IMG/VR virus record: IMGVR_UViG_3300025141_016305
Span: 96,001-160,000 of that record
Length of the DNA stretch: 64,000 nucleotides
Direction: 5' to 3' (one strand)
From: a virus
The translations under genes were made by a program, and so were the position numbers. The notes beneath the pieces are model-generated. The model saw nothing but the letters and a program-made list of their open reading frames with translations, was not told where the DNA came from and did no database searches. Of the stretch, positions 6,802 to 60,919 are shown piece after piece. Numbering within the stretch: the stretch's first letter is position 1; each line of letters starts with the position of its first letter.

Positions 6802-9800
6802 TTACTCTTCACTCTCATCGCACAAATCATCTTCGTCAAGTAGATCTGAACAATTCTTCTTTACCAGCTCTCTTTCTCCTTTTATTTCCGGAGTAGCTAA
6901 GGCTAAATTAGTAAATACTGTCATTGGATGTCCATAACGACCGTATTGACCTATTTTCCACTTAAGGTCCCAACCCACATCTACTTCCATACACGGGGCC
7001 GCGAAAGCAAAAGAAAGGTCCATCATAGACAGGGGGCCACCGATGGAATAAGACAACATTCTACTAACAGTAGTTCCAAGTGCTTCCCACCCGGATGTGT
7101 TACTAGGGCCATGGGATAGTAATTCGCGACTAGTCGCGAACGGCTTGGGCGTAAGCAAATACGCAGATAGATACATATCTGCTAGAGCCGTTGGAAAAAT
7201 AGGGGCATATTTGCCATGGCCGGAGCCTCCTTCTTGTCTTCTTCGAGTCCTATCTATTAGGCCGGCCGGCATTTCATTCGTATTTCCGGCTGTAATAAAC
7301 TTTAGATCTGAATTTCTAAGATTCTTTAGATTACAATTTGAGTAATGATATCTCATCTCTTTATATGCAGGGTCTAAAACATTAGCAATTCCGCGCAAAA
7401 CTATCGATGGCATTTGCTTTATAATTTCATACAAATCCTCCACAAACATCTTAAGTAGATCTGTATCAAAAGGAAAATCAAAACAAGGCAAATTCGATCC
7501 GTCTGATAATGAACTTTGCAAATTCATCTTTAACATTTCTGATTGTGTAACATCCGACATGAAATTTAATTTTTCTTTTGGTGATAGCGAGCATACAAGA
7601 AAAACACTAGCTAGACTAGATTTTGCACCGGTGAGCAGACCGCCGGCGGTACGTGGGTCAGCCGGAATCTTTCCATATCCTCCTAGAATACTAGTGGAAA
7701 AAACTGTGGCTATAGACATATACCTTTTTACTGGAAAAATGTATTCTAAAGCCAACTTGCATTCTGGCTTTTCTATTAGCTTATGTAGCCTTTCGTTTTT
7801 AGAATGAATGTACTGATTTTGTATATTTACAATCGAAAAATTTTGAAAACCTACATCCTCTTCATGTGAAGCTAACGGGTGACTATATAAATATTTCTGT
7901 TCACCTTCTCTCGCCACTGTCTTATAACACCTCTCCTCGTTGGAAAGGTTACCATATGCTTCAGATCCGACCTTTTCTATTATTGATTCAAACAGAGCAG
8001 TTGAATCTTCACTAGGTGTATTGTGCATCAGGCGAACTCCGTAATTCACAACGGAGGAATCAAAAAGTGAATCAGTTTGTCGATATAATTCTGTCATGAA
8101 AGTATCTTTAAATTTATTATAAAAATAATAAACCCCTGTTTCTTCTAAAGCGCACACCCAAGAATCGTGCTGTTTTTGTATGCTTCTTCTTAAAAAGGTT
8201 TTCGCATGGCGCTGTATGTGATTTGTATAGCTGTTTCCAAAACCAAAACGATACAGGTGGTAATAATTAGATATTGTTGCAGCTCGGATTTTATCTCTTA
8301 CAAGATTATATTTGTCGCGACTAAAAAAGGTAGCTATCTTTTGATGCCTCTCCATTCCAGGAAAGCCGTTGAGCGCGATATCATTTAAATTGGTAAAGTC
8401 CAAAACATGATTTAGTGGATCTACAGCTGGTTGCCCATTCGGCAGGCGAGGTACTGATGATTCAAGACTGTTCATCAAATATAAATTAATCTCTGTGAAG
8501 TGATCTTTGAATCTTATTAATTCTGTTGGCAAATCAGTGTTGTTTGCTGTAAAAATATCATCAACAAACCGACTACTATTTATTCTATCTTCAACGATGA
8601 ATTCAAAATTTTGAAGCTGCTTTTTCAAAAATCTAAACACCAGCAACATATCATCCCTATATCTTATAAACGCTGGTGAAGTTAAAATACGTTGGGATGC
8701 TAAATTGATTAGCAGCGAGTCTTTATTCATTCTATGAGATTTGTACGCTTCAAAAAACTCATCGGGATTATAGCGGTCGTCGCCTAAAAATGGTGAGAAG
8801 CCACACATCATGTCTGGAATCTCAACGGAAGGAATTATATGTTCCACTTGTGCCCTTGTGCTGTTATTATCCCAATTTGTACTATACCGAGATTGGGATA
8901 TGTCCACTAACCCTCTCTCAACTCGGACTTGCTCTTCAACCAAGTCTGCATAAAATATCTCTGGGTCGACGCCATCTGCAAAGCCCTGGATTCTCCTGAT
9001 CAGCGGCGATGATAAATCTTCGAAATCAAGACCAGTGTCCTCCTCGAAAGCATTTGCTTGATGTCTAGAGGCGGCATCTAAGCGATCTGCGTCTTCGCGA
9101 ATGATACCTGATCTTATCCTGCCAGCGCTAGGTAATAATATATCTCTCACTCTTTCGAACTGTGCTTGTGTGATTTCTATGAATCGACCTTGGGGGCCCA
9201 TGTATTGGCCTCCCAATTGTGGAGTTCCAGTTTCGTCTCCAACATAATAACCGTAGCGACCCGTTCCAGTAACTGTATACTCGTCACCACCTAAAACATC
9301 ACTCTTTTCTGGGAGCCAACTTGGCATTGTTGTTCTTCCCCAAAAAGACTCCACTCTTCTCTGTTTAAACCAGTGTAATATATTTGCAATTGAAATGGCC
9401 AACTTATTTCTTAATCTTGCCGGTTGAAGAGGGGTAGCAACTATAGTGTTACCAGTTCTTTGCAATCTATCTGGTAGAGTATTCATGTTTAGTGCCGTAT
9501 TATAAAGAAAGTTTAAACCATACCTTTGTTGGCTTTTTAAGTTTTTAAAATGCTCTCTTCTCTTTCCCAATTCATCAGTAAAGATTACTTCTTCTACAGT
9601 TCCCAAAGCATAATTTATATTTCCCAAATTCGCCCGGGTTGGATCTGCGTCGGGGTTTCCAAGAAAAGCGTTTTCTACTTGTTCAAATATTTTCCTAGAT
9701 GCGCTTAGAAAATTAATTCCAGTGTCTTCCTCAAATTGTTCCATTGATGCCGCAGCGGCAGCAGAAAGGGCTTGACCCTCTGCAATATTTCTGGCCTCTG

Positions 9801-12800
9801 GAGATAATATGTCTCTTATTCTTTGAAATTGTTCCTCTGTAAGCTCTTTGAATTCACCACCCTCTATGTAACCCCTTCTTCCTGTTGTGTGGCTGCTAGT
9901 CTCTTCGCCAGGGTTTGTATAAAACAAATAATTTGGTGGTCTCTTAAGAATATTTTTATTATCTTTCATGAGATAGCCACAATCCGCAAACAACTTATCT
10001 ATGTCTGCTTGATTGTTCGAGAAATTGCCTAGGCCTTCGTCTGCTTCTATTTTACATGCGTAGGAATATATTTTTGACACGGAACAAAAAGACTTTCTAT
10101 TGTTATCCCTTTTTTGTAAGTTACTTTGTCTTATGAAGTAAGGAAAATTTGAAATTCTCTCGATTACATCATTGTATTTTTTTGACCTAGTTTGATCAGT
10201 AGAGTCTGGATTCATTGTCGCATATGCGTTTTCTATCATTTCAATATACTCATCAATGACCTTTTTAATCGCCCTCTTTAATAAGTCTTTTCGAAAATCT
10301 ACGGATGAAGTGTCTGAAAACTCCATCACTCTTGGTGTTACAACTTTTGAAAACACCTCTTTTATTGCGCCATCTCTATCATCTACGACTTGTGTAATCA
10401 AAATTCTAACTGGTACAATGTAGTCATTTACACCTAGGACCTTTTGGTTCGGAGGGTTTAGTCCCCGGTCAGTAGCCGAGAATTTCCCAGTTGTTATGTT
10501 ACGCGCAAACTCTTCTATTTTGTTAAACAAGACTTGGCGATCGAACCTTCTAACTTGATTCCCAACTCGAACTTCAGAAGAAATGTAAGGATTGTACCCC
10601 ATAGAGTGTGCTAATCCCACAGAGGTTATATTTTCTCTTGCACCCTTTGTGCATAGAACTAAATTTTGCAATTCTGCATTGCCAGGATTTATAATTTTTT
10701 CAATATACTGACCTTTGCGGGCTTCATCAGGGGGCGTGCCGGCATGTAAATCAGTCTCTTCCTCTAGATAATCTAACAGCTTCTTAAACGATTGTGTAAC
10801 TGGATCATCTGGCATCTGCGATGGCCATGTTGAGATAGCTTGATCATCACTGGCGCCAGGAGAATTAAAAATTATTGATGAATGACCTTTTAAATCAACC
10901 ACTGTCTCAACCCATCTCTCGGTGAAACCCTTTTCTGGGAGATCTTCTGTGTTTTCTTGTTCGGCATCTGTAATGGTTGAGTATAATGTTTCCAATTCAT
11001 TAAAATCTTGTTCTGGCATTTCTCCATAAACATTTAAGAAAACGGTCTTACCATTGCGAAGCTTGATCCAATCGTTTGGAAAGTTGTTATTGTTTATTAT
11101 TACTCTAGTCCCATCGGCGCCGTATCTATAAACATTAAGCCAAGGAGCATCTGGATCCAAAGGAGTGTGGTTAGTATTTCCAATTCCCAACATCTTATAT
11201 CCGCGGGAGATGGTATTAGAATCCTGGTCTGGATGGTCGACATTGTAAAGAGACTTTAAAAGTGCTCGGTCGGTCAAACCCTGAAATGTTATTTCTCTTT
11301 CGTCTGAAGTGTAATCTACTGTTGTTTCTCCATCCATAGGAATAAGATAAAATCTATTGCTTTCTTTTGTAAAACTATTTGGTAGAAATAATTTTTGCAT
11401 TTGCCTTGTAATCGTTCCAGCGGTGGACAAAGAGAGATCAAGATCTTGAGTATTAAAAAGCGAAGAGATATCTTCTTGTTTGTGATCGAAAAAATCGTAT
11501 GGATTGCCAGCATTTGATACGTTTAAAACCTGCCGCTGCCTTTTTATAAACCGGCCAGGGGACCTTTTAATGACCTCTGCTAAGTGATGAGCCTTGCTTT
11601 CAAGATTTTCAGTGGAAATAAAGCCGAACTTTGGTAAAATTGCATTGTCATATCTTCTTGTTAGTCCGTTAATTTGAGTAAATAAATTTTTTAAATCTTC
11701 TATACTATATATTTCTTGGTTTTTCCAAGCTTCAAGAGGATCCTCTGTCCCATCCAGAAAAGACAAGTCAGGAGCAAAGTCACCGCCTTGCATACTTAAA
11801 CTTAATAGACTATCAGGGAGAGCCTTAAGGATCCCGCCAGATGGTGGAAAAATACTATCTGTTGTTTGTTTTAAGGTTAAGTTTGTTGATGGGTCCTCTT
11901 CTGTTTCTATTACCGCCAGAAACTCATCAAAAGCCCTAGTCGTATCAAGCGTTAAATTGCTAAAATCTGCAAGCCCACCTTCTACTCTAATATAATGTTC
12001 GATTGATAGAAATGGATCATTTAAAATTTCAGTTTCAGGAATCGATGTTTTCCAAAGTTGCCGGTTGCCAAAAATCTCCTCAGTAATATCGCTAGATACG
12101 TCGACGTTTGGAATATTGTTTATGAACCAATCGCGATAAGAAACAGAAACATTATTATATATCTTTTTAGATAAATCTGGCATCAACAACAATTCGGTGG
12201 ATACCATCTTATCTACTGCTTTCTGGCCATCAGAAATGTTTGTTATTTTTTCCGCTACTGGTCTCCATATGTCTTTTAGAGATTGGCTTTTTTGTAATTC
12301 ACTATAGACGTATCTGGAGATAAAATCACTGTAAAACTGATCACCTAATACACCTTCGACATCCCATTCTGAATATGGTATTGAGCCCTTTAGCATAAGC
12401 TCGATCAAACAGATTCGAACAAAACCTTTCAGCGTTGCCACCTGTATAGCACTCTCTATGGGTCCGGGTTTTGAATAGTCTAAATTTTGTGGCTGATTTT
12501 CTGGCTTTGCAAGTTCTGTTGCTACAAGATCCGGAATCTCTTCTATCACCATTTTATCGAAAGATAAAATTCCATAATGACTTAGGTTAAATCGATTTCT
12601 AAGGCAGCCAGTAGTTTCATCTATATATCTGCCGCGGATACGATCACCAACGCGTTGGCCATAAGCCTCATCAAACATTCTAGAGCCCCTCAATTTAAAG
12701 AATATTTGTTCCATGATTCCTTCGAAACTCTTCTGATAGAGAGAATCGGTACCGGGGCCGTATATTAAATTCCTCGCGTCACTGTCACTTGGCATTGCAT

Positions 12801-15800
12801 ATTGTACATTGGAGTCGTAACTGTATCTACTTAAGTCTTCGTTGATTTTACTTAAGTATTGCTGAGCGAAAACCTCTCTTTTGGATATAATTTCCTGCTG
12901 TGGCGAAGGTTCGATTGACCTAAGCAGAAGATTTTGAAACTCTTCTGGAATGGGGTCACAATATCTAAAGTGCTGTTCTTCTGGGAAGAGCTTGTTGTCT
13001 TTTACGATTATGACTTGCGAGTCTTTATCCAGATAAGTTCCAAACTCCTTTAAAGAAATTTCTGGACCGAAGTCCTTCACCTCTCTTGGGAACTTAAGAG
13101 TCAAAACATTCTCAACAGATGTGCTAATTACGGATTGACGACCTTCATACTCTCGCCTATTTTCTTGGGCAATATCATGTACATCCTTTAGAAATACCAT
13201 ATATTCCGATTTTGTTTGTGTGGCAAAAACCTTTGGTGCTTCTCTTTCCAATATTTGTGATAATTCTCTGAGTCTTTCAAGTAATTTATTTTGCTTTTCT
13301 GGTAGTGTGATTTTATCCCCTACAAACTCATTTTCTTGCCCTTCTGCCAAGCGAATATTCGCGGCATCTTCCGAAAAGAAGTCCTTAAAAACCAACAAAT
13401 CTTTGAAATTTTGAGTTTCTGCAGTTGTGACCTCTTCCCCAAACCCAATTGGTGATAGAACCACTTGTAATGCCGCGGAGTCTTCCGGGCTTAGGTTCTT
13501 TAGTTGCTCTACGCTTATGACCGTTGGTGGCGAAAAGTTTTCTCTATACTTAACAGTTACAAAACTTCTCTCCTCAGTTGAAGGATCAATGTATTCTGCT
13601 GCCTCATAAACACTATATAAAATCTGGAACTGTTCCTCTATCGACTCTTGTGTTATAACTTGCTGAAATCTATCTCCTTGACTAGCATATCTTCTTATTG
13701 ATTCTGCTGCAGATTCGAACCTCAAGACTGCAGTGGCGTTGAAATTTGGATCTCCAGGGCGGGCGACACTCGGTACTTCTGTTGATAAGTTTGGAACAAA
13801 GGCTCCAAGAGAATTAACATAGGATGATTTTGCTTTTTCAAAAACACCTTTTGTTGTTCTTTCAATTGCCTCATTTAAACTATTTGGAAAAGAATTGAAC
13901 AGTGCATTTGAGTCGCCAACTCTAAATAGTTCTTCAGCTATTGGAGCTAAGCCATTTTCAGATAGGGCCTTTTGAGCTTCGAATTCGTCCAAAAGGTTCT
14001 GCTCTGCTAACTCTAAAGCTCTCCTAATTTCGTCATCTTGGACATTATCATTAGCCATAATCTTACGACGAATTTCATTCAACACTTCTGTTGTGGTTTC
14101 GCAAGTTGCGGCGCCAGCTATAGTACTGGTGGCTTGCAAGGCATCACACAGCGTAGATGGGACAAATGAACTAATAGTGTCAAAAAACTCAATTATATCT
14201 TCGTGAGTTTGAAAGCTATTCTGTAAATCAAATGTTTGAGAGAGGCGCCCAAGTATTCCCACCGCAGAGGGAGGGATTGGCTCACCAGAAAAAAGTCTAC
14301 ACAACTCTTCCCCTGAAAGTGTCCTCAAGGAAGCGTCTATGAAATCTGCGGCCTTCTCTCTATCTTCGTTTTCTAGTCGCAAATTAAACATTGCATCAGC
14401 CAGTGCTTTTTGTACAAAAGGAGACAAGCCTTCACCGCTTCCAAATGTGTTGGAAAACTGATCGGCACAGAATGGAAATTCTAAAAATTGAAGTATGGTA
14501 CGTAAAAATGTGCATATCAATCTATTAATAATCTCTTGCAATTTTTTATATAAAAGATCAAGAAAATCCACATCAAAACCAAAAATTGGTATTCTATCTG
14601 GTATTGGTATATTAAAGTTTGGTATTTTTATTGAAAACCCCGGAAGTTTTGCACACTTTAAATAATCACAAAGCAAACCAGTTAAATTAAGCTTTTTAAA
14701 AATCTCCTCTTTTAAGAGGTGTGCATTACATGTATCACCAAGCATGCTCAGTATCTCGTCTTTACCATAAGGGGTATCTGCAACATTTTTTGTTAGAAAA
14801 TTAATTTCTGTTAGTTTTTCTGCCCATTCAACTTGTGCTTGTGCGCCTTGTTTGGCCCACGAGCCAGCTTTGTGCCAATAGGCTTCATCCTCGTTTGTGC
14901 TTGTTCCGCTAGCGGAGATTCCCAGATTAAATGTGTGCTCCAACAAATAAGCAATTCCATTTTTTGGATCAAAAAGATCAGCGCAGCCGAAACCACCAGT
15001 ATCAACTTGATTTGATATATTGTCTGTAATTCCACTCACAATTGGAATTGGAGTGCTTGTCATTTGTCTGATTCTTGCCAAATACCCGACAGCATATGGT
15101 TTCATAAACTCCGTCGGCGCATGTACCTCTCTTGACCTAGGTGTCATACCGGGGGCGCGGGGTGCCATAACTGCAGTGTCTTCATATATAATTGCATTGC
15201 TTGTGACTATTTTGCTTATTATGATCACCGGGGATTTTGAAATAATTCGCTCCCGGGCGCGGTCTGTTTCGTAGTCTCCTAGTAAGCCCAAGCCTTCATT
15301 GCCCGGAATTGTAAAATCAAAATGAATTGTTATTTCTGGTGCGAATAGACCTAAATCAGCCCTGGGTGTGTTTGTTGTTATGAAACTAGGATCTCTTTCA
15401 TTGACAAGTGCCTTGATTTGATCCACAAGCATTTGTAAATTATTTGCCTCTTGCAAGGGGTCAAATCCACTGGGGTCAAACTGAAATCGTGCCTCTTTTG
15501 CTTGTTTTGCAGCTTCCCTTATATCTTCTTTGGCCACCTGCAATCTTCTGTCCAACTCTGCGATATCTATGGAAATAGAAAGGGGCGTTGTTTGAAAAGT
15601 GTTCAAAAAATCTGATGCTTTCGGATCAGAATCTGCAGCTAATTTAGACAAAGAGACAAGCGATTCGCCAATTATCTCGCTACCGTCAAATCTACCAAAC
15701 GGACCTAGGTCAATATCTATTCGAGACCTTTCTTGTGCTGACAATTCAGAATCTTCACGTGAAACTTTTAGGGCGGCCTCTCTAAATCTTCTGACTATTT

Positions 15801-17622
15801 CTCTTCTGTTTGCTGCAGCGTACGCTCTATATTCTTTAAATCTTCTTTTGTTTTCTTCTGGGGATAAATCTTCGCATGCCTCATCAATCCTAGCCGCTAG
15901 AGGATCCGGGACAGTATCTGTATAAGAGGACTCTTCTGGGTCGAGTGCAGGAGCTTCTTGAGTTGATATTGAGTACCCTTCCGTTATTAGATTTAATTTA
16001 TCTACATTTATTTCAAAATAGGCACGATAAGGGTCCCCGGTACGAAACGAAGGGGTTCGATATTGAATGAATTTAATTAATGGCTCTTGAAGGTTCAAAC
16101 CCTCTATTTCATCATAAAACTGAACTTCTGATTCTACTATTTCATTTGATTTTGAAAGATTTTCCCTTGTTGTTAATACCCAATATTTAGATCTATCTTC
16201 ACTTGCTATATCGTGCGGAAGCATGTTTGAATGTTCTGGCTGTGGTATGTCCGAGCCCACTACAAAATACTCATCCAAAAACTCTATTTTATCTTTATAT
16301 ATGTACCAGATATCTGGCTTATTATAAAAATCTAACACTTTACTTAAGGCTTTGTCTTCCAAAGATTTTATTGTTTCGGGATCATAATTAAAAATATTTT
16401 CAAAAGTAAACTCTGTGATATCGAAAAATCCAACTGTTTTACTATTCACAACAAATGGATCCGGATCTGTCAGGGGGTCTGGTTGCAAAGCTCTCTCTAT
16501 GTAACCTCTTGCTTGTTCTAAATCAATCGTAGGATCTATTTCATCCTCTGCAATCATTTCCATTGTTTTTACGGCGGCATCATATAATATACTAGCCTTT
16601 GCGGAATCTTGGCCGGTGGCTTTTGGTCTTGCCTTATAAATTATAGAAGCAGCAGACATAGAAATACTTTCTTCCGTCCCGCCAGAACGAACAGCTTCGG
16701 CGCTTGGAGAATCTTGCCCTAAGCGGCTGGCACTTTGCAGCACGGGACCCCTAGGGCGGATTGGGTCCCAATCATAAGAAGCTGGTGCCTTTTCTTTGAA
16801 AATAGCAACGTGGCCTTGGTTGTCTTTTAATGAATTCAAAACGTCTAGAGAGGCGAGCGGAAATGCAGGGGCGAATATTGCTCCTTGGCTTTCTGCAGAG
16901 TCTGGGCGTTGCGCTAAGAGGAGACTAACAAACCGGTTAAATAATTCATATGGTATTATATCTACAACTAGGCCCCCTTCCGCTGTCCCAAAACTTACTT
17001 CTTGTACTGTCCCATCCAAAACTATTGGTCTGGTTATAACATCCTCTCTATGGTAGTACCCTTCATTTGAAAGACCGGAAGCCTGAGGGAGCCATCCATG
17101 CATAACTGCAAGAGTCGCTTCTCCAAGTTGGCCATACTCTCTTTCAAACAAAGTTATAATTGAATCAATAACCTGCAAAGTTAGTGATTCTTTTCTTGCA
17201 ATTTTGCTAGCATTTGAAAGATCATTATACTCAACACCTTTTTCCAACTCGTTCAATTCAGCTATCATTCTATTGACACCAAATTTGTTAAAAAGATAAC
17301 AAAGTATAAAAAACTGGTTATCTAGTTGATATTTCATTATTCGAGATTGCAGGTCTTTATTGAAGGTTGCAACATCTCTAGGCGTAGAGCCAACTCCGGA
17401 AACACAGTCAAACCACCCATTTGGATCGTATGCTACGCCCTCATTTGCTTCTTCTTGTGGAGGTAGGTCTTGGGCTCTAACGACGGACCCTAAAGCTAAT
17501 TTAACAGCGGATATGTCACTACCGATATCGCCTATTTTTCGAGGTCCGAAAGATAAAGTTCTCTCTCCCTTGTCTGTAGTGTGCGTTACTTCTAGCTTGA
17601 ATGATCTGATCGTACTAGACAT
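6802..17622 (-). CDS. Giant hypothetical protein (3606 aa), probably virion/baseplate-associated
   Basis: Single long ORF with GGAGA Shine-Dalgarno, between gp5-like and gp25-like genes; acidic; contains an internal repeat. Confidence 0.75.
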   Translation of the reverse strand: MSSTIRSFKLEVTHTTDKGERTLSFGPRKIGDIGSDISAVKLALGSVVRAQDLPPQEEANEGVAYDPNGWFDCVSGVGSTPRDVATFNKDLQSRIMKYQLDNQFFILCYLFNKFGVNRMIAELNELEKGVEYNDLSNASKIARKESLTLQVIDSIITLFEREYGQLGEATLAVMHGWLPQASGLSNEGYYHREDVITRPIVLDGTVQEVSFGTAEGGLVVDIIPYELFNRFVSLLLAQRPDSAESQGAIFAPAFPLASLDVLNSLKDNQGHVAIFKEKAPASYDWDPIRPRGPVLQSASRLGQDSPSAEAVRSGGTEESISMSAASIIYKARPKATGQDSAKASILYDAAVKTMEMIAEDEIDPTIDLEQARGYIERALQPDPLTDPDPFVVNSKTVGFFDITEFTFENIFNYDPETIKSLEDKALSKVLDFYNKPDIWYIYKDKIEFLDEYFVVGSDIPQPEHSNMLPHDIASEDRSKYWVLTTRENLSKSNEIVESEVQFYDEIEGLNLQEPLIKFIQYRTPSFRTGDPYRAYFEINVDKLNLITEGYSISTQEAPALDPEESSYTDTVPDPLAARIDEACEDLSPEENKRRFKEYRAYAAANRREIVRRFREAALKVSREDSELSAQERSRIDIDLGPFGRFDGSEIIGESLVSLSKLAADSDPKASDFLNTFQTTPLSISIDIAELDRRLQVAKEDIREAAKQAKEARFQFDPSGFDPLQEANNLQMLVDQIKALVNERDPSFITTNTPRADLGLFAPEITIHFDFTIPGNEGLGLLGDYETDRARERIISKSPVIIISKIVTSNAIIYEDTAVMAPRAPGMTPRSREVHAPTEFMKPYAVGYLARIRQMTSTPIPIVSGITDNISNQVDTGGFGCADLFDPKNGIAYLLEHTFNLGISASGTSTNEDEAYWHKAGSWAKQGAQAQVEWAEKLTEINFLTKNVADTPYGKDEILSMLGDTCNAHLLKEEIFKKLNLTGLLCDYLKCAKLPGFSIKIPNFNIPIPDRIPIFGFDVDFLDLLYKKLQEIINRLICTFLRTILQFLEFPFCADQFSNTFGSGEGLSPFVQKALADAMFNLRLENEDREKAADFIDASLRTLSGEELCRLFSGEPIPPSAVGILGRLSQTFDLQNSFQTHEDIIEFFDTISSFVPSTLCDALQATSTIAGAATCETTTEVLNEIRRKIMANDNVQDDEIRRALELAEQNLLDEFEAQKALSENGLAPIAEELFRVGDSNALFNSFPNSLNEAIERTTKGVFEKAKSSYVNSLGAFVPNLSTEVPSVARPGDPNFNATAVLRFESAAESIRRYASQGDRFQQVITQESIEEQFQILYSVYEAAEYIDPSTEERSFVTVKYRENFSPPTVISVEQLKNLSPEDSAALQVVLSPIGFGEEVTTAETQNFKDLLVFKDFFSEDAANIRLAEGQENEFVGDKITLPEKQNKLLERLRELSQILEREAPKVFATQTKSEYMVFLKDVHDIAQENRREYEGRQSVISTSVENVLTLKFPREVKDFGPEISLKEFGTYLDKDSQVIIVKDNKLFPEEQHFRYCDPIPEEFQNLLLRSIEPSPQQEIISKREVFAQQYLSKINEDLSRYSYDSNVQYAMPSDSDARNLIYGPGTDSLYQKSFEGIMEQIFFKLRGSRMFDEAYGQRVGDRIRGRYIDETTGCLRNRFNLSHYGILSFDKMVIEEIPDLVATELAKPENQPQNLDYSKPGPIESAIQVATLKGFVRICLIELMLKGSIPYSEWDVEGVLGDQFYSDFISRYVYSELQKSQSLKDIWRPVAEKITNISDGQKAVDKMVSTELLLMPDLSKKIYNNVSVSYRDWFINNIPNVDVSSDITEEIFGNRQLWKTSIPETEILNDPFLSIEHYIRVEGGLADFSNLTLDTTRAFDEFLAVIETEEDPSTNLTLKQTTDSIFPPSGGILKALPDSLLSLSMQGGDFAPDLSFLDGTEDPLEAWKNQEIYSIEDLKNLFTQINGLTRRYDNAILPKFGFISTENLESKAHHLAEVIKRSPGRFIKRQRQVLNVSNAGNPYDFFDHKQEDISSLFNTQDLDLSLSTAGTITRQMQKLFLPNSFTKESNRFYLIPMDGETTVDYTSDEREITFQGLTDRALLKSLYNVDHPDQDSNTISRGYKMLGIGNTNHTPLDPDAPWLNVYRYGADGTRVIINNNNFPNDWIKLRNGKTVFLNVYGEMPEQDFNELETLYSTITDAEQENTEDLPEKGFTERWVETVVDLKGHSSIIFNSPGASDDQAISTWPSQMPDDPVTQSFKKLLDYLEEETDLHAGTPPDEARKGQYIEKIINPGNAELQNLVLCTKGARENITSVGLAHSMGYNPYISSEVRVGNQVRRFDRQVLFNKIEEFARNITTGKFSATDRGLNPPNQKVLGVNDYIVPVRILITQVVDDRDGAIKEVFSKVVTPRVMEFSDTSSVDFRKDLLKRAIKKVIDEYIEMIENAYATMNPDSTDQTRSKKYNDVIERISNFPYFIRQSNLQKRDNNRKSFCSVSKIYSYACKIEADEGLGNFSNNQADIDKLFADCGYLMKDNKNILKRPPNYLFYTNPGEETSSHTTGRRGYIEGGEFKELTEEQFQRIRDILSPEARNIAEGQALSAAAAASMEQFEEDTGINFLSASRKIFEQVENAFLGNPDADPTRANLGNINYALGTVEEVIFTDELGKRREHFKNLKSQQRYGLNFLYNTALNMNTLPDRLQRTGNTIVATPLQPARLRNKLAISIANILHWFKQRRVESFWGRTTMPSWLPEKSDVLGGDEYTVTGTGRYGYYVGDETGTPQLGGQYMGPQGRFIEITQAQFERVRDILLPSAGRIRSGIIREDADRLDAASRHQANAFEEDTGLDFEDLSSPLIRRIQGFADGVDPEIFYADLVEEQVRVERGLVDISQSRYSTNWDNNSTRAQVEHIIPSVEIPDMMCGFSPFLGDDRYNPDEFFEAYKSHRMNKDSLLINLASQRILTSPAFIRYRDDMLLVFRFLKKQLQNFEFIVEDRINSSRFVDDIFTANNTDLPTELIRFKDHFTEINLYLMNSLESSVPRLPNGQPAVDPLNHVLDFTNLNDIALNGFPGMERHQKIATFFSRDKYNLVRDKIRAATISNYYHLYRFGFGNSYTNHIQRHAKTFLRRSIQKQHDSWVCALEETGVYYFYNKFKDTFMTELYRQTDSLFDSSVVNYGVRLMHNTPSEDSTALFESIIEKVGSEAYGNLSNEERCYKTVAREGEQKYLYSHPLASHEEDVGFQNFSIVNIQNQYIHSKNERLHKLIEKPECKLALEYIFPVKRYMSIATVFSTSILGGYGKIPADPRTAGGLLTGAKSSLASVFLVCSLSPKEKLNFMSDVTQSEMLKMNLQSSLSDGSNLPCFDFPFDTDLLKMFVEDLYEIIKQMPSIVLRGIANVLDPAYKEMRYHYSNCNLKNLRNSDLKFITAGNTNEMPAGLIDRTRRRQEGGSGHGKYAPIFPTALADMYLSAYLLTPKPFATSRELLSHGPSNTSGWEALGTTVSRMLSYSIGGPLSMMDLSFAFAAPCMEVDVGWDLKWKIGQYGRYGHPMTVFTNLALATPEIKGERELVKKNCSDLLDEDDLCDESEE

Positions 17623-51671: not shown

Positions 51672-51748
51672 TGGTGGGCCTCCGCGGACTTGAACCGCGA
51701 ACCTGCCGGTTATGAGCCGGATGCTCTAACCTATTGAGCTAGAGGCCC
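51672..51748 (-). tRNA. tRNA-Ile2 (anticodon CAT, lysidine substrate)
   Basis: GGGCCTC...TCCGG-CTCATAA-CCGGC...GGTTCAAGTCC...GAGGCCC-ACCA. Has C4:G69 and C5:G68, lacks initiator features, and sits next to tilS. Confidence 0.9.
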
Positions 51749-55350: not shown

Positions 55351-56295
55351 TCAACTTTCAACTTCACAATATGGATCTTTATTATCCAATATATTTACTG
55401 CTGTGGTACATGCTTTTCTTCTCATTTCTTCAAAAGACTGCTCAGAATAAAACGATGTATGAGGATTAATGATTACGCGGTTACTATAATAACCGCTAAG
55501 CCACTTATCTAAAAAAGAACACCTAAGTGGGGGTTCCGTTTTTAAAACATCCAAATAAACATTTGAAATTTCTTTAGAATCTAGTGCCTTTTCTAAAGAT
55601 TTATAATCTTCAATTAAATTACCTCTTGCAGTATTCACTATTGTAGACCCTTTTTTCATATTTTTTAAAAATTCTTTATTTATCATACCAACTGTTTCAT
55701 TGTTACATGGTACGTGAATTGAAATAAAGTCTGAAGTTTTTAACAAATCATTTAAAATGTTAACTCTTTTGCATTCCAAGACCTTTTCGTATCCTTGGGA
55801 AACATATGGATCGTAAAATAAAACATCAAAACCGAAAGACTTACATAAACGGATTAACACACTACCGATTCGGCCAGCGCCTATAACTCCTACTTTTATT
55901 AAGTTGGCTCTTTGTATGTTCTTGTTTGGCAATTGCCATTTTTCAGATAAATAGTTTTGTTTAGATAAACAATTATATTCATATATATTTCTATATTTTG
56001 CAAAAATAAAAGCGGCGGCTGATTGTGCGACCTCATGAACTCCATAATCTGGTATTATACAGACTTTTATTCCTCTTTTTTGAGCTTCTTTTACATCTAC
56101 ATTATCATATCCCACACCATATCTAACCACAGCTCTTAACGACTTGAATTTATCAAAAAAAACATTATTTATTTTTTCATTCCAAGCTAGATAAACAGTT
56201 GCATCATAGTTTTCCCTACTAATCTCGTTACCTAAAATCTCTTTTTCTATATCAGTGATTTCAATATCATTGGATATACACACTCTACGCATCAA
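55351..56295 (-). CDS. D-isomer-specific 2-hydroxyacid dehydrogenase
   Basis: RYGVGYDNVD, GVIGAGRIG, VNTARG, LDV...EP, PHTSFYS. Confidence 0.92.
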   Translation of the reverse strand: MMRRVCISNDIEITDIEKEILGNEISRENYDATVYLAWNEKINNVFFDKFKSLRAVVRYGVGYDNVDVKEAQKRGIKVCIIPDYGVHEVAQSAAAFIFAKYRNIYEYNCLSKQNYLSEKWQLPNKNIQRANLIKVGVIGAGRIGSVLIRLCKSFGFDVLFYDPYVSQGYEKVLECKRVNILNDLLKTSDFISIHVPCNNETVGMINKEFLKNMKKGSTIVNTARGNLIEDYKSLEKALDSKEISNVYLDVLKTEPPLRCSFLDKWLSGYYSNRVIINPHTSFYSEQSFEEMRRKACTTAVNILDNKDPYCEVES

Positions 56296-56987
56296 ATGCC
56301 TCTGTTGTTTAAAATCAGTTTATAGGAATCCATTAATACAGTTGTATCCATCCCCAAAGCAAAAAAAGAAAAATCATCTTCGTATTTCTCTACATCCAAA
56401 GAATTTCTAACCAGATGAATCGCTGCCTTGTTTTTCGGAATAAGTAATTTATATTTTTTTATTGCATTCAAAAAATTTTCATTTTCAAAATCCCCAACGC
56501 AACCATAACTGGCAGATAGATCATACATCCCTATAAGAAAATGATCAATATCAAAATTGATCATTTCATCCAGAATGTCAATCCCCTCTTTTGATTCAAT
56601 CATAGCAATTATTTTTGGGTTTGCTTTATCTAAATCCCTAGTTCCCCACATGTTTTCGCGAACTAATCCCTGGCCGCGTTGGCCGCCATGGCGAGGATAT
56701 TTACACATTTTAATAATTTTTTGACAATATTGAATACTATCTACAGTAGAAAAAATAGCATAATCTATACCACTATCTAAACAGGTTCGAACCAAATGAT
56801 CATCAGCATATGTAAATCTTACACCACATTTTTTACCACACAATTTTACAGTCTGTATACATGAAAACAAACTTTCATTAGAAAAATTTGAATGTTCTGC
56901 ATCCAGGATTACTCCTTCACAATCTGCATTACAAAGAATCTCACTAATAATGGTACTGGGTATCTGTTGCCAGGAAAACTTTCTCAC
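56292..56987 (-). CDS. HpcH/HpaI-family class II aldolase
   Basis: LDAEH, KYP..GQRG, AMIES.EG, IGMYDLSAS; GTGA-coupled start at 56987. Confidence 0.88.
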   Translation of the reverse strand: MRKFSWQQIPSTIISEILCNADCEGVILDAEHSNFSNESLFSCIQTVKLCGKKCGVRFTYADDHLVRTCLDSGIDYAIFSTVDSIQYCQKIIKMCKYPRHGGQRGQGLVRENMWGTRDLDKANPKIIAMIESKEGIDILDEMINFDIDHFLIGMYDLSASYGCVGDFENENFLNAIKKYKLLIPKNKAAIHLVRNSLDVEKYEDDFSFFALGMDTTVLMDSYKLILNNRGI

Positions 56988-57652
56988 CCCAGCACTCCGG
57001 GGGCCATCAAACATGCCATTTCAAAATCATCCCAATAATCTATTTCCACTGCTTCTTTTTTCGAAACTCTAAATTTAAATGGATTAGTTCCCATCCAGTA
57101 TTTAACTTCTCTTTGTTTTTTTACACTAGCTGTATATGCTGCTCCGGTTATTTGATCCCAAGATGGTAATTCCTGTGTAAAATTATGCCAGGGCCCTGGA
57201 TTAAAATTGATGCATCTTCCCTTTTCGTCCAATAAAAAATCGTTATAAGGTACAGTTGTTACAACACTATCTTTCGTATTTTTATCAATCACTTCCTTTT
57301 CATAAGCTTCTATAATTTGGTCATATCTAGTAAAAAACGGATTTGTTACCATCGCCCATGTAATAATATCCTCTTCAGAAAAATGTGATATAATATCTAA
57401 AATATATTCATGAAGGCGTGCGTCATTACACATGTAGTCGCTTCTCGAAATAAAACTTATGTTATTCTGCTCAGCTATAAGCCTTGCTTTAGAACTGTTA
57501 CTTGCCACTACGATATCGTCGACTTTGGTGCATGATTTAAGTTGTTCTATTTTAAGATTAAGTAAAGACTTGTCCTTATGAAAGTTTCTAAAATTCTTAT
57601 TTTTAACCCTTGTTGAACCCTCTCTTACAGGAATTACTGCAATGTGTTTCAT
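56984..57652 (-). CDS. Acylneuraminate/KDO-type cytidylyltransferase
   Basis: IPVREGSTRVKNKN, TNPF, TQELP, EID..DDF. Confidence 0.85.
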   Translation of the reverse strand: MKHIAVIPVREGSTRVKNKNFRNFHKDKSLLNLKIEQLKSCTKVDDIVVASNSSKARLIAEQNNISFISRSDYMCNDARLHEYILDIISHFSEEDIITWAMVTNPFFTRYDQIIEAYEKEVIDKNTKDSVVTTVPYNDFLLDEKGRCINFNPGPWHNFTQELPSWDQITGAAYTASVKKQREVKYWMGTNPFKFRVSKKEAVEIDYWDDFEMACLMAPGVLG

Positions 57653-58680
57653 GTTATATCCAACTTTTGGTAGAGAGATATTTGATCCACAACTCTACTA
57701 GCATACCCGAATTCATTGTCATACCACAAAACCAATTTTAAAACATTTCCCTTAGTTTCTGTCCAGCGATGATCAATATGGCAAGAATAAGGAGACTTAA
57801 TAAAATCTGTTGAAACCAGAGGTTCAATATCGTTTTTAAAAATTTTACAAGTTTGTTCACTCTCCGCATCTAAAAAGATTTCTTTAATTTCTTTCTTATC
57901 AACGGTTTTCTCTAAAATAATTGTAAGGTCCGCTGATCCAACAATGGCATGGGGTGTTCTATAGGAAAAAACCAACAACTTATCCTCAATACCTGTTAAA
58001 ACTCGGTTTGTTGCAACTAAAGCTGTCGTCCATTTGGGAATAATATTATTAGAACTGGAGCGGCCTAGGGCATAGTTATGATAAGTTTGTTTCGGATTAG
58101 ATTGATATTTTGATTGTCCATCTAAAACGTTCTGATAATTTAGCCATGGATGAACAGTAGTGATGCTGCCACCAGAGATACCAAAAGAATTATCTAATCT
58201 CTTTAGTACCGGGGCGAGAGCCGTAGTATCGCAAATACTACATGAAACCACCTTATGACATTTATCTGCAAACTTTTCGTTAACACCCAAAACTAATTCA
58301 AAATCAGAAATTGAACTTGAGTTAGTTATATAAACCCTTTTTACTCCCCACTTTTGTATAACCTGAGGTGCTGAACTTATATTTCTTCCTATTCCAGATG
58401 CATCAATAACATAATCTGTGTTGCTCCAATCTACGTTTTCTATTTTCGATTCACAAAAAACTTTAATCTCATGACCATTTAAAACTAGTTTATCGTTGGC
58501 GGTGCATTCGACATGGCCCTGAAAGCGACCATATAAAGAATCATACTTTATTGTATATTCAATATTCCTAACATCAAAATTTATATCATTGATAGTGGTA
58601 ATTTGAAAGTTATTATTATTGGCCAAGATTCTTAATATTTGGCGGCCGATGCGGCCAACGCCGTTGATACCAATTTTCAT
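57649..58680 (-). CDS. GAPDH/erythrose-4-phosphate dehydrogenase-family protein (divergent active site)
   Basis: IGINGVGRIGR, KYDSLYG, SICDTTALAP, TTVH, WYDNEFGYASRVVD. Confidence 0.88.
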   Translation of the reverse strand: MKIGINGVGRIGRQILRILANNNNFQITTINDINFDVRNIEYTIKYDSLYGRFQGHVECTANDKLVLNGHEIKVFCESKIENVDWSNTDYVIDASGIGRNISSAPQVIQKWGVKRVYITNSSSISDFELVLGVNEKFADKCHKVVSCSICDTTALAPVLKRLDNSFGISGGSITTVHPWLNYQNVLDGQSKYQSNPKQTYHNYALGRSSSNNIIPKWTTALVATNRVLTGIEDKLLVFSYRTPHAIVGSADLTIILEKTVDKKEIKEIFLDAESEQTCKIFKNDIEPLVSTDFIKSPYSCHIDHRWTETKGNVLKLVLWYDNEFGYASRVVDQISLYQKLDIT

Positions 58681-58795: not shown

Positions 58796-59989
58796 CTAGC
58801 GTGATTTAAGTGTTTTGATGTGTTCTAGGGCAGTTTGTAGCAGGTCTTTATTTAATTGAAAAATTTGTCTCTCCCGGTTAGGGCCGCCTATTTTAGTTTT
58901 GACAAGGCCTAATTCTTTCAATACATCCACCATTCGGGCAGCCCGATTATAACCTATACTTAATTTTTTTTGCAAGAACCCATGGATTCCTCCAAGGGTG
59001 GGTGGAGATTGTTTTTTAGGATACTTAATAAGAACATGTAATGCATCAAGAAATCGAGGGTCTTGTATAGCTACTCGAATCAAATCATCGCTAAGTAAAG
59101 TGTCTCTGGCTTTTGGGCTTCTTCTAGGAGGGTTTTCATATGCTCTAGGAATCTCATCTGGAATGAAATCCAAAGTGTCGTCTTTTCCAATATTTGCATC
59201 TCTTTCTTTTACTTTCTGTCTGACAAAATTTTGTGCATCCAAAAATCTTTCATGAACTGTTTTTGGCAATTCTTTCGCTACACTGTCAGTCATCCACTCG
59301 CTAGGTTTTCCTGCTTGGTCTAATAGACCCATTTGAGGTGTTGCAACTCGCTTGATCGGAGCTGATGGGAGAGGATCACTCATGCTACTTGGCAAAGGTG
59401 GAAAATCTACTTGTGTTTTCTTTTTTCCTAAACTAGATAATTTATCCAAAGACGTTGGTTCGTCTCCAATAGGAGGCCTCTGGTAAATCTGCCTATCTTT
59501 AACTTTTGATCCGGATTTTCTGATTGCTTCTCTGGTTTGTTTTTCGACAACATCTGTAACCTTATCTACCTGGTCGACATAATAAAATATTTTTTCGGCT
59601 ACTTCGTTTTGTGGTGCTCTCACTAAAGCATCGGATGATTTTAAAGATTTGCTAGCTTTTTTTAATTTTAGGGCACCTTTTAGCGCTCGACCTGCTTGGC
59701 CAAGCAAAGGAAGGGCCGCGGCCAGTGATATAGCTAGATTGGCAGCTGCAAAAATGTTGCGATACTTCTCAAATGCTTCGATGGCAGGAGGGATGTCCGG
59801 ATAAGCTGATATCCCTGTTGGATCGAAAAGTCCTATAACCGTGCGTAAGTTTTCAAAATCTTCTTCTGATACTTTAACGTTTCCGAGATCTGGATCTGGG
59901 GAAGTGATCACCCGGGCGGTGTCTGGATCTGTTATATCTATTTCTCTTAGATACTTTCTCCAGCTTTCCATTATGAGTTGATGTTTCAT
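58796..59989 (-). CDS. Putative head-packaged protein with C-terminal FtsK-gamma winged-helix domain
   Basis: N-terminal MKHQLIMESWRKYLRE; C-terminal DPRF.DA...LQKKLSIGYNRAARMVDVL.E.GLV. Confidence 0.75.
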   Translation of the reverse strand: MKHQLIMESWRKYLREIDITDPDTARVITSPDPDLGNVKVSEEDFENLRTVIGLFDPTGISAYPDIPPAIEAFEKYRNIFAAANLAISLAAALPLLGQAGRALKGALKLKKASKSLKSSDALVRAPQNEVAEKIFYYVDQVDKVTDVVEKQTREAIRKSGSKVKDRQIYQRPPIGDEPTSLDKLSSLGKKKTQVDFPPLPSSMSDPLPSAPIKRVATPQMGLLDQAGKPSEWMTDSVAKELPKTVHERFLDAQNFVRQKVKERDANIGKDDTLDFIPDEIPRAYENPPRRSPKARDTLLSDDLIRVAIQDPRFLDALHVLIKYPKKQSPPTLGGIHGFLQKKLSIGYNRAARMVDVLKELGLVKTKIGGPNRERQIFQLNKDLLQTALEHIKTLKSR

Positions 59990-60000
59990 GATATATTCTC

Positions 60001-60276
60001 TTATTCAAGCTGGCCTAAATCTCTGGCAGCATTTCCAGATATATATTTTACAGCTGAATTCATGTAATCTCCTGCTTTTGTTATTTTTGTTTCAAGCCAT
60101 TCTGGTAAATCATCTTTATCTTCTATGAGGCTTAAAAGAATTTTTGTATCTGCCAATAGATGAGCTAAAGTTGTACGATGCATTCTAGCTTCTTCTTGAT
60201 TCTGCGCATTTGGCATCGATGATACCTTGGCATCCGTACAGCCACAACTTTCTTGTATACTAATTTTAATTTTCAT
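60001..60276 (-). CDS. Conserved phage hypothetical protein (DDLPEW..KIT.A.DY motif)
   Basis: 91 aa; late-promoter motif 4 nt upstream. Confidence 0.7.
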   Translation of the reverse strand: MKIKISIQESCGCTDAKVSSMPNAQNQEEARMHRTTLAHLLADTKILLSLIEDKDDLPEWLETKITKAGDYMNSAVKYISGNAARDLGQLE

Positions 60277-60320
60277 ATATTAAATAGTCCCCGATAAGAG
60301 AAAAGCTTGGTGGAGGTGGC
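60274..60320 (-). repeat. tmRNA-3'-end/promoter repeat, copy A (includes ACTATTTA-N4-ATG)
   Basis: 40 of 47 aligned positions identical to 53647-53692. Confidence 0.85.
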
Positions 60321-60337: not shown

Positions 60338-60919
60338 TTATTGTTTTCGAAAAACATATATACTATCAGGCTCGCCGGGTACCTTCTCTCTGATTATTAG
60401 CTCTTTATTGTTATATGATATTGCCCAGTTCTCTACTCTTTGGCCGCTGTTCGGGTCGAAGAAGTGTAGTTTTCCTTTCTCATCAGCATCAGCTTTAAAA
60501 ATCAATTCGCGGTTACGGCGCTGGCGGTTGATTCTTTTTCGCTGTGAGACTCTGCTGCCGGAAAAAAAACGCAAGTTCCAACGTAGATCTACGCTTGGGG
60601 GCGTAGCTCGTATTGGCTGGCCAGGGTATGGCTTCAAGGGGTTGGTATATGTATGCACCTTGGATCTTTCGTGATCAAGATCCCAGGCCGTGTCTTCGAG
60701 ATCTTTTGCAGCTTGGAGCTGTTCTGCTTGTTGTTTTGCTTCTTTCGCGGAGGCCTCTTTTTTAGCTTTCATTTGATTATGCTTCACCAGCGCCTTCATG
60801 CGGGCCTTATGGATTTTGGATATAGGACGAGGTTCTGGTTCGTCCTCGATATCGGTAGCCAGTGTCGTCTCTATTTCTTCTTCGATTATTCTTAGCAAAT
60901 ATTGTTTTGTGATCTTCAT
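60338..60919 (-). CDS. Putative head-packaged hypothetical protein
   Basis: N-terminal MKITKQYLLRIIEEE leader; late-promoter motif upstream. Confidence 0.65.
   Translation of the reverse strand: MKITKQYLLRIIEEEIETTLATDIEDEPEPRPISKIHKARMKALVKHNQMKAKKEASAKEAKQQAEQLQAAKDLEDTAWDLDHERSKVHTYTNPLKPYPGQPIRATPPSVDLRWNLRFFSGSRVSQRKRINRQRRNRELIFKADADEKGKLHFFDPNSGQRVENWAISYNNKELIIREKVPGEPDSIYVFRKQ

Follow-up and report, generated by a model that had tools for sequence, protein, structure and literature searches.

A 397-residue protein encoded by an uncultured marine virus is a putative cargo protein of four parts, in which a short N-terminal tag, a carrier module and a basic, largely disordered Pro/Lys-rich linker are followed by an FtsK-gamma head that lacks the FtsK motor. 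Its gene lies in a 64,000-nucleotide stretch of DNA (the window), bases 96001-160000 of the 175,011-bp IMG/VR virus genome IMGVR_UViG_3300025141_016305, which was judged 96% complete; by the proteins that it encodes, the virus is a distant T4-like myovirus. The open reading frame (ORF) sits exactly where an earlier note on this DNA had placed it (58796..59989, minus strand, 397 residues), and a cluster 99% identical to its product (P0001) occurs elsewhere. We favour, tentatively and at somewhat under an even chance, the reading that this is a capsid-targeted, protease-trimmed internal protein that would enter the cell with the phage DNA and then bind DNA near the membrane. The parts of the protein are as follows, in window coordinates.

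58796..59989, minus strand: the whole ORF of 397 residues, stop codon included (ORF call)
59942..59989, minus strand: residues 1-16, the N-terminal tag MKHQLIMESWRKYLRE (conservation in relatives and the tag pattern)
59834..59941, minus strand: residues 17-52, an acidic variable spacer (conservation falls right after Glu16)
59615..59833, minus strand: residues 53-125, the conserved carrier module, running from LFDPTGISAYPDIPPAIEAFEKYRN through a hydrophobic helix to a Lys-rich stretch (common to 77 cluster representatives)
59699..59755, minus strand: residues 79-97, IFAAANLAISLAAALPLLG, a predicted transmembrane-grade helix (hydropathy and model)
59072..59614, minus strand: residues 126-306, a long helix, a linker and a conserved helical piece (full-length model and relatives)
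58847..59071, minus strand: residues 307-381, the complete winged helix of FtsK gamma, in which 8 extra residues lengthen the loop from helix 1 to helix 2 (Pfam, BLASTP, model and Foldseek)
58799..58846, minus strand: residues 382-397, an extra C-terminal helix (domain model; shared with the ortholog P0005)

The leader MKHQLIMESWRKYLRE, which the earlier note had picked out, is conserved in relatives: M7, E8, W10, Y13, L14 and E16 are invariant in the close ones, and similarity falls right after Glu16. It holds two L/I-x-E motifs, IME (6-8) and LRE (14-16), and sequence comparison identifies it as the local form of a portable tag, MKL[IL]MENW[RK]x[YF]LxE. A degenerate DNA pattern for MENW[RK]x[YF]LxE, run over viral contigs, matched on at least 120 of them. 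Among the 130 matches listed, nearly all stand at ORF starts, and in 89 the residues just ahead are exactly MKL[IL]. Beyond the tag Glu the sequence differs from protein to protein with no relation, so that a short N-terminal peptide ending in L/I-x-E is common to the protein under study and to unrelated ones; the tagged cargo includes Zeta-toxin-like kinases and a NUDIX hydrolase. One tagged protein with a DGHHRW motif was considered as ParB-like, which Pfam did not confirm. The tag varies at synonymous positions (AAC and AAT for Asn at 57:43; more than one codon family in use for Arg and Leu) and has unconserved flanks; selection therefore acts on the peptide, and a DNA-level element such as a recombination or translation signal is ruled out as the cause of the conservation.

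Each complete genome has 1-6 tagged genes, which lie together within ~10 kb and always on the gene strand, and in these genomes the tag pattern gave 23 matches, vs 0 for a reversed control pattern. Such islands of ~10 kb were seen on viral contigs (L010-L128), for example at G011:C1:12883-21572, G012:C1:10407-19491 and G016:C1:78776-83841. At least three other proteins of the phage studied here begin with a second tag type (MKITKQYLLRIIEEEIE and similar), one of them encoded by the next-but-one gene upstream of the target gene; the pattern of this tag type matched the phage proteome three times, always at an N-terminus. An 868-residue PcfJ-like protein of the same phage, encoded outside the window (G000:C1:5127-7733; L268), starts with MTNFHNKWREFLAE, a variant of the first type.

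The phage encodes a Gp23-type major capsid protein (208 bits), whose closest relatives are those of Flavobacterium phage vB_FspM_immuto (47% identity) and Rhodothermus phage RM378, together with a gp20-type portal (Portal_T4), a gp25 baseplate wedge and a gp21-type prohead protease (Peptidase_S77, 109 bits), the enzyme looked for in a phage with a T4-type internal protein. Peptidase_S77 was found in 14 of 16 large tag-bearing contigs, in all seven records at least 90% complete and in two of five small fragments. In T4, gp21 cleaves after L/I-x-E, and the capsid-targeting sequence comprises residues 1-10 of IPIII, with positions 4 and 7 serving targeting and 8 and 10 processing (PMC9026906). 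Counting from Met7, the target protein has W4, Y7, L8 and E10, a register that is notional given its MKHQLI extension and second I-x-E. The prohead proteases of related phages start MK[LV]L[LI]REY[YF]EL...DLLTE and share MKLL-x-E plus an aromatic residue with the tag, a moderate resemblance. Their N-terminus, MK[LV]L[LI]REY[YF]ELCEGG[VI]CQDLLTE (L002, L129-L142), is conserved with two Cys and an L-T-E site, and may be a propeptide.

The T4 internal proteins have been described as "a highly diverse set" with only the targeting sequence in common (PMC3012670). As with T4 IPI, IPII, IPIII and Alt, we find an L/I-x-E-ending tag on unrelated proteins, a gp21-type protease, basic and diverse cargo (the target protein with its tag removed has a computed isoelectric point, pI, of 9.4) and genes outside the head module; the wider family of the target also includes an ADP-ribosyltransferase (ART), and such domains are typical of proteins co-injected with DNA (PMC5512222). 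The target differs from the T4 proteins in that its tag has another sequence and 14-16 rather than 10 residues, that far more families are tagged, that the hydrophobic carrier is extra, and that its packaging and cleavage are predicted. Taken together, the comparisons, with a portable tag that matches the protease and heads varied basic cargo of phages having this enzyme, best fit a T4-style, capsid-addressed protein.

Behind the tag and its spacer (residues 17-78 together have a pI of 4.05) comes a module with a family of its own. An exhaustive profile search with the N-terminal 290 residues (E<=1e-3) found 77 cluster representatives, 91 to 1129 residues long, sharing residues ~40-125: [LIF]xDPTG[IV]xS[YW]PD, a helix, a hydrophobic Ala-rich helix ending AIPxxGK, and a Lys-rich stretch. 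Across 66 members P94 never varies, and D56, P57, T58 and G97 are kept in at least 90%; the segment DPTGI...LAISLAAALPLLGQAGRALK, to which the earlier note had drawn attention, is the best-conserved part of the target protein. The module is single-copy in the target genome, and both tag types are found ahead of it in family members. It is present in only one of the 130 tagged proteins, and the single viral locus with both tag and module (L123) is on a short contig; the tag is thus not a membrane signal tied to the module. A profile of the N-terminal module found nothing meaningful among PDB sequences.

Helix 79-97 has a Kyte-Doolittle mean of 1.95 over 19 residues (family median 1.82) and is modelled as a helix with a block predicted local distance difference test (pLDDT) score of 84-87 in the full-length model. 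Previously read as part of a pre-toxin region, it scores as a transmembrane segment, an aspect that is new here. The net charge is -6 before it and +6 just after it, as would fit a predicted membrane anchor with its N-terminal side out and C-terminal side in.

Whether the homologs keep their N-terminus and swap their C-termini had been proposed as a check, and they do. FtsK_gamma ends two family members, and other C-termini are ART-PolyVal, RIO1/APH kinase-like, Pesticin, PG_binding_1 and many unrecognised ones; the close relatives P0002, P0003 and P0004 end at ~290-310 residues without gamma, and P0004 and P0005 share 59% identity up to residue 175, beyond which their sequences diverge. The end of P0005 (residues ~425-455) repeats the second tag type in frame (MKITKTQLKQIIKEE); this is either read-through into a tagged gene that follows or a joint resembling a tag within a longer cargo protein.

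The proposed resemblance of this segment to pre-toxin regions of polymorphic toxins did not hold. The Pfam hidden Markov model (HMM) for PT-TG (PF14449) gave no match at E<=10 on the segment, on its close relatives or across the whole phage genome, and none at E<=0.01 across 66 family members. A language-model neighbour search placed four PT-TG clusters among its 30 nearest (score 0.93), by its own calibration only a lead, and with three negative HMM tests we rejected PT-TG membership. Like PT-TG polymorphic toxins and polyvalent proteins (PMC5512222), the family combines a conserved N-terminal trafficking part with an exchangeable C-terminal effector, and it overlaps them in ART-PolyVal; it differs in having no PT-TG HMM match, no LXG or type VII secretion system context and one effector domain per protein. 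Polyvalent proteins were defined by two or more disparate effector domains per polypeptide (Iyer et al. 2017; PMC5512222), and the target has only one that is recognisable. The injected effector of the earlier note is partly supported by comparison (a T4-like phage, a gp21-type protease, a portable L/I-x-E tag and swapped C-termini), and its PT-TG assignment is not. The actions that the note suggested for it (competition for KOPS, the FtsK-orienting polar sequences, activation of XerCD and a block of segregation) are hypothetical, and the altered residues described below may weaken them.

Residues 126-306 comprise, in the full-length AlphaFold model, a helix (129-169), a disordered Pro/Lys-rich linker (~170-230 and 267-298) and a helical piece (235-266); E231, W232, F249, A252, Q253, R257 and R263 are invariant in this region among close relatives. 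The model as a whole, helices and disordered linkers, matched nothing meaningful among viral structures.

The C-terminal FtsK-gamma domain, claimed at 58859-59062 (residues 310-377), was recovered there by Pfam, BLASTP, an AlphaFold model and Foldseek. The HMM search suggested for it gave 37.4 bits against FtsK_gamma (PF09397) on the whole protein, above the curated cut-off of 30.6, with 40.6 bits on the C-terminal 104 residues alone and 40.1 bits in a search of the phage genome, where it is the sole match. Pfam aligns only profile positions 24-59, because 8 residues are inserted between helices 1 and 2; P0005, a full-length ortholog of 455 residues at 33% identity, has no such insertion and scores 53.9 bits over profile positions 2-50. 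BLASTP against 116 bacterial FtsK gamma domains, retrieved by the IGYNRAARM signature, covered residues 307-381 at 33-49% identity. In an alignment with 27 bacterial gammas, D17, Q47, IGYNRAARM, G68 and the wing Arg79 are invariant (domain numbering).

The full-length model being weak in the gamma region, a model of the 104-residue C-terminus built on the bacterial alignment was used instead (pLDDT 82.3; predicted template-modelling score, pTM, 0.72). Its helices 20-28, 39-50 and 54-66 and the beta-hairpin wing of strands 70-75 and 81-86 make up a winged helix, which is followed by a helix at 88-103. Foldseek matched it over the full gamma length to 2VE9_B (template-modelling score 0.67 per target) and 2J5P (0.59), at 27% identity and a probability of at least 0.97. 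Winged helices of ArsR/SmtB type ranked above FtsK gamma, owing to the additional helix that flanks the phage domain on either side. The extra C-terminal helix (residues 382-397) has no counterpart in the 27 bacterial gammas and aligns with P0005 residues 389-400, which argues that the two phage gamma domains have a common origin. The absence of an ATPase domain, also claimed before, is borne out by domain searches: the protein has no alpha/beta RecA-type FtsK_SpoIIIE domain and is not a translocase. With the FtsK/SpoIIIE gamma domains (PF09397; 2J5P, 2VE8/2VE9, 5DCF) it shares the winged helix, IGYNRAARM, the helix 1 motif DP-x-F..A..V and the wing Arg; it differs in the missing motor, the loop insertion, the extra C-terminal helix, and D/K at E1303/E1306 and K/S at R1289/R1292.

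These positions were mapped onto an E. coli FtsK sequence that we take to be correct, its R, E, E and Q, R, R, N falling at the published numbers. E. coli FtsK becomes blind to FtsK-orienting polar sequences (KOPS) with R1300A/E1303A/E1306A (PMC2680272), and uses its DNA-reading surface to contact XerD as well, through Q1288, R1289 (a critical salt bridge), R1292 and N1296 (PMC5052618). The phage domain does not keep the KOPS-reading set, having R352, D355 and K358; the last is a charge reversal at the E1306 position, which is Glu in at least 90% of the 27 bacterial gammas. At the XerD-contact positions it has Q340, K341, S344 and N348, and by this alignment one of the four contacts would be lost. 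These changes suggest that the phage domain, which probably binds DNA, need not read canonical KOPS. Canonical KOPS occur in the phage genome about as often as chance would give (2 and 1 copies).

Gamma cargo is rare. Of 50 tag-bearing records of related phages, including seven complete ones, none has FtsK_gamma. Close relatives of gamma were sought as well, with none among short proteins, only the target's own cluster among longer ones, and none in pattern searches of bacterial genomes. Searches for related loci with the target or P0003 as query gave no relatives, and with P0005 tag-level matches only; tblastn of the whole protein against cultured phages gave no match.

We infer the following course for the favoured, capsid-addressed protein. 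The 16-residue tag would most likely act like the T4 capsid-targeting sequence, bringing the protein into the assembling prohead core, and would then be cut off after Glu by the gp21-type protease. The mature basic protein would ride in the head with the DNA and enter the cell alongside it. There the hydrophobic helix would insert into the inner membrane, the basic C-terminal part facing the cytoplasm, and the gamma head would bind DNA, either the incoming phage genome or the host chromosome. With a membrane anchor, a long linker and gamma in this order, the protein would have the plan of FtsK without the pump.

Several observations weigh against this course. The neighbours of the target gene are sugar-metabolism genes, not head genes, and the motif upstream of its operon (below) is not demonstrably late. 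A transmembrane-grade helix is unusual for a T4-type internal protein and would fit action in the membrane of the infected cell, and the PG-binding or lysozyme-like C-termini of some family members misfit a cytoplasmic C-terminus. The association of tag and protease is confounded to some extent, T4-like phages making up most large marine phage contigs in any case, and tblastn of the tag against 50,697 phage records gave no match, so that no tag-bearing relative turned up in culture. L/I-x-E motifs are depleted in the mature parts, but only as a weak trend: one is observed in the target vs 3.2 expected (P=0.13), and observed/expected ratios are 0.83-0.97 in tagged sets vs 1.21 in untagged ORFs.

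Some of these points would suit a protein that is made in the infected cell and never packaged, a membrane-anchored organiser of DNA, which we consider possible but rather unlikely. Helix 79-97 would lie in the inner membrane with the acidic N-terminus out and the basic C-terminus in, and gamma would keep phage or host DNA there while it is replicated, segregated or packaged, much as phage phi29 p16.7 does, or act as a decoy for host FtsK at the septum. The hydropathy of the helix, its charge pattern, which fits the positive-inside rule, and the position of the gene outside the head module favour such an organiser, as does the order of anchor, long Pro-rich linker and gamma, which on the predicted topology mirrors the layout of FtsK minus its pump. 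This p16.7 is a membrane-anchored DNA-binding protein that is not known to have an N-terminal tag or to be part of the virion. The target resembles it in a predicted single membrane helix and a C-terminal DNA-binding domain, and differs in its unrelated sequence, its N-terminal tag and a topology that is only predicted. An organiser leaves unexplained why the same tag stands on many soluble-looking unrelated proteins, and why it ends in a protease motif and travels with the protease. That only one of the 130 tagged proteins has the hydrophobic module also counts against it.

A separate possibility, improbable in our judgement, is that the tag is a recognition peptide for some other process (a modifying enzyme, a chaperone, regulated degradation or translation control) and the protein an intracellular winged-helix DNA-binding regulator. 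The ranking of ArsR/SmtB-type repressors above FtsK gamma in Foldseek speaks for a regulator, but IGYNRAARM and Pfam place the domain in FtsK_gamma, not ArsR. As for a modifying enzyme, we rejected a radical-SAM-linked tag: Radical_SAM is in only two of eight complete tag-bearing genomes and absent from the target phage. Conservation of the tag as peptide, not as DNA, likewise counts against this possibility.

We give similarly little credence to an injected, membrane-anchored FtsK mimic without a motor, whose gamma would switch on the host Xer recombinase away from the septum or occupy FtsK loading sites. If true, the phage would disturb cell division and the resolution of chromosome dimers as soon as infection starts. 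If true more broadly, the tag and the DPTG/helix carrier would be a general plug-in delivery of exchangeable effectors to the host membrane.

Least probable, and very unlikely, is that gamma serves the phage's own packaging or genome recognition by reading a phage sequence and handing DNA to the packaging or replication machinery: Bacillus phages Sam46/Sam112 offer a precedent in an FtsK_gamma-TerS fusion, for which a packaging role was proposed, and in stand-alone phage gamma genes, whose role was called unknown (PMC8190038), and the altered residues D355 and K358 suggest a target other than KOPS, but the protein has no terminase domain, its gene is not beside terminase, gamma is missing from the 50 related phage records and so is not conserved machinery, and canonical KOPS are no more frequent in the phage genome than expected by chance. 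The target is like the Sam46/Sam112 proteins in having a phage gamma without a translocase, and differs in that its gamma forms the C-terminal cargo in a polymorphic family of tagged carriers, here in a T4-like marine phage, rather than being a small free protein or part of a terminase.

For capsid-addressed cargo the textbook example is T4, with its capsid-targeting sequence and a few internal proteins that are injected. Our results suggest that the same principle may operate in abundant uncultured marine T4-like phages, with a different tag and a much larger and more varied cargo, and they define a second conserved layer, the DPTG/hydrophobic-helix carrier, whose function is undescribed. Stand-alone phage FtsK-gamma domains gain a concrete setting, as a putative DNA reader that would be delivered or membrane-anchored. 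If packaging is true, the tag would allow injected phage effectors to be predicted in metagenomes from sequence alone, and gamma cargo would be a new phage route to host chromosome handling. What is particular to the target phage is the specific tag, carrier module and gamma cargo; phage gamma domains as such have already been described (PMC8190038).

Upstream of the target gene, on the same strand, lie the following features.

60001..60276, minus strand: an ORF of 91 residues, ending 11 nt upstream of the target gene (ORF call)
60281..60288, minus strand: the motif ACTATTTA, 4 nt ahead of the ATG of the 91-residue ORF, a possible promoter (recurring upstream motif)
60338..60919, minus strand: an ORF of 193 residues with the second tag type, MKITKQYLLRIIEEEIE (ORF call and tag pattern)

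A family search with the 91-residue ORF gave no match; it and the target gene are probably co-transcribed. The 8-mer ACTATTTA, with a fuller form ACTATTTA(T/A), is ~8-fold enriched upstream of ORFs, and in the phage genome its CTATTTA core occurs 31 times on the gene strand vs 8 on the other, with 12 sites within 40 nt of 11 ORF starts. From its distribution it may be a promoter. It precedes the operon holding the target, four other tag-bearing genes, the portal gene and a DnaB-like helicase gene. Since both the portal and the helicase are among these, the motif gives no timing, and an argument from late promoters was unusable. The motif also lies upstream of the gene for the 868-residue PcfJ-like protein (L268).

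Directly downstream of the target gene, window 55351-58680 holds genes for a glyceraldehyde-3-phosphate dehydrogenase-like protein, a cytidylyltransferase, an HpcH/HpaI aldolase and a D-2-hydroxyacid dehydrogenase, a four-gene metabolic run that resembles a sugar-nucleotide pathway. An ORF of 3606 residues at window 6802-17622 adjoins the gp25-like baseplate gene and is presumably a giant baseplate or fibre protein. The window also encodes a tRNA-Met (51672-51748) and a phage tmRNA (53680-53989) with the tag peptide ANDDIEIFEDFALAA.

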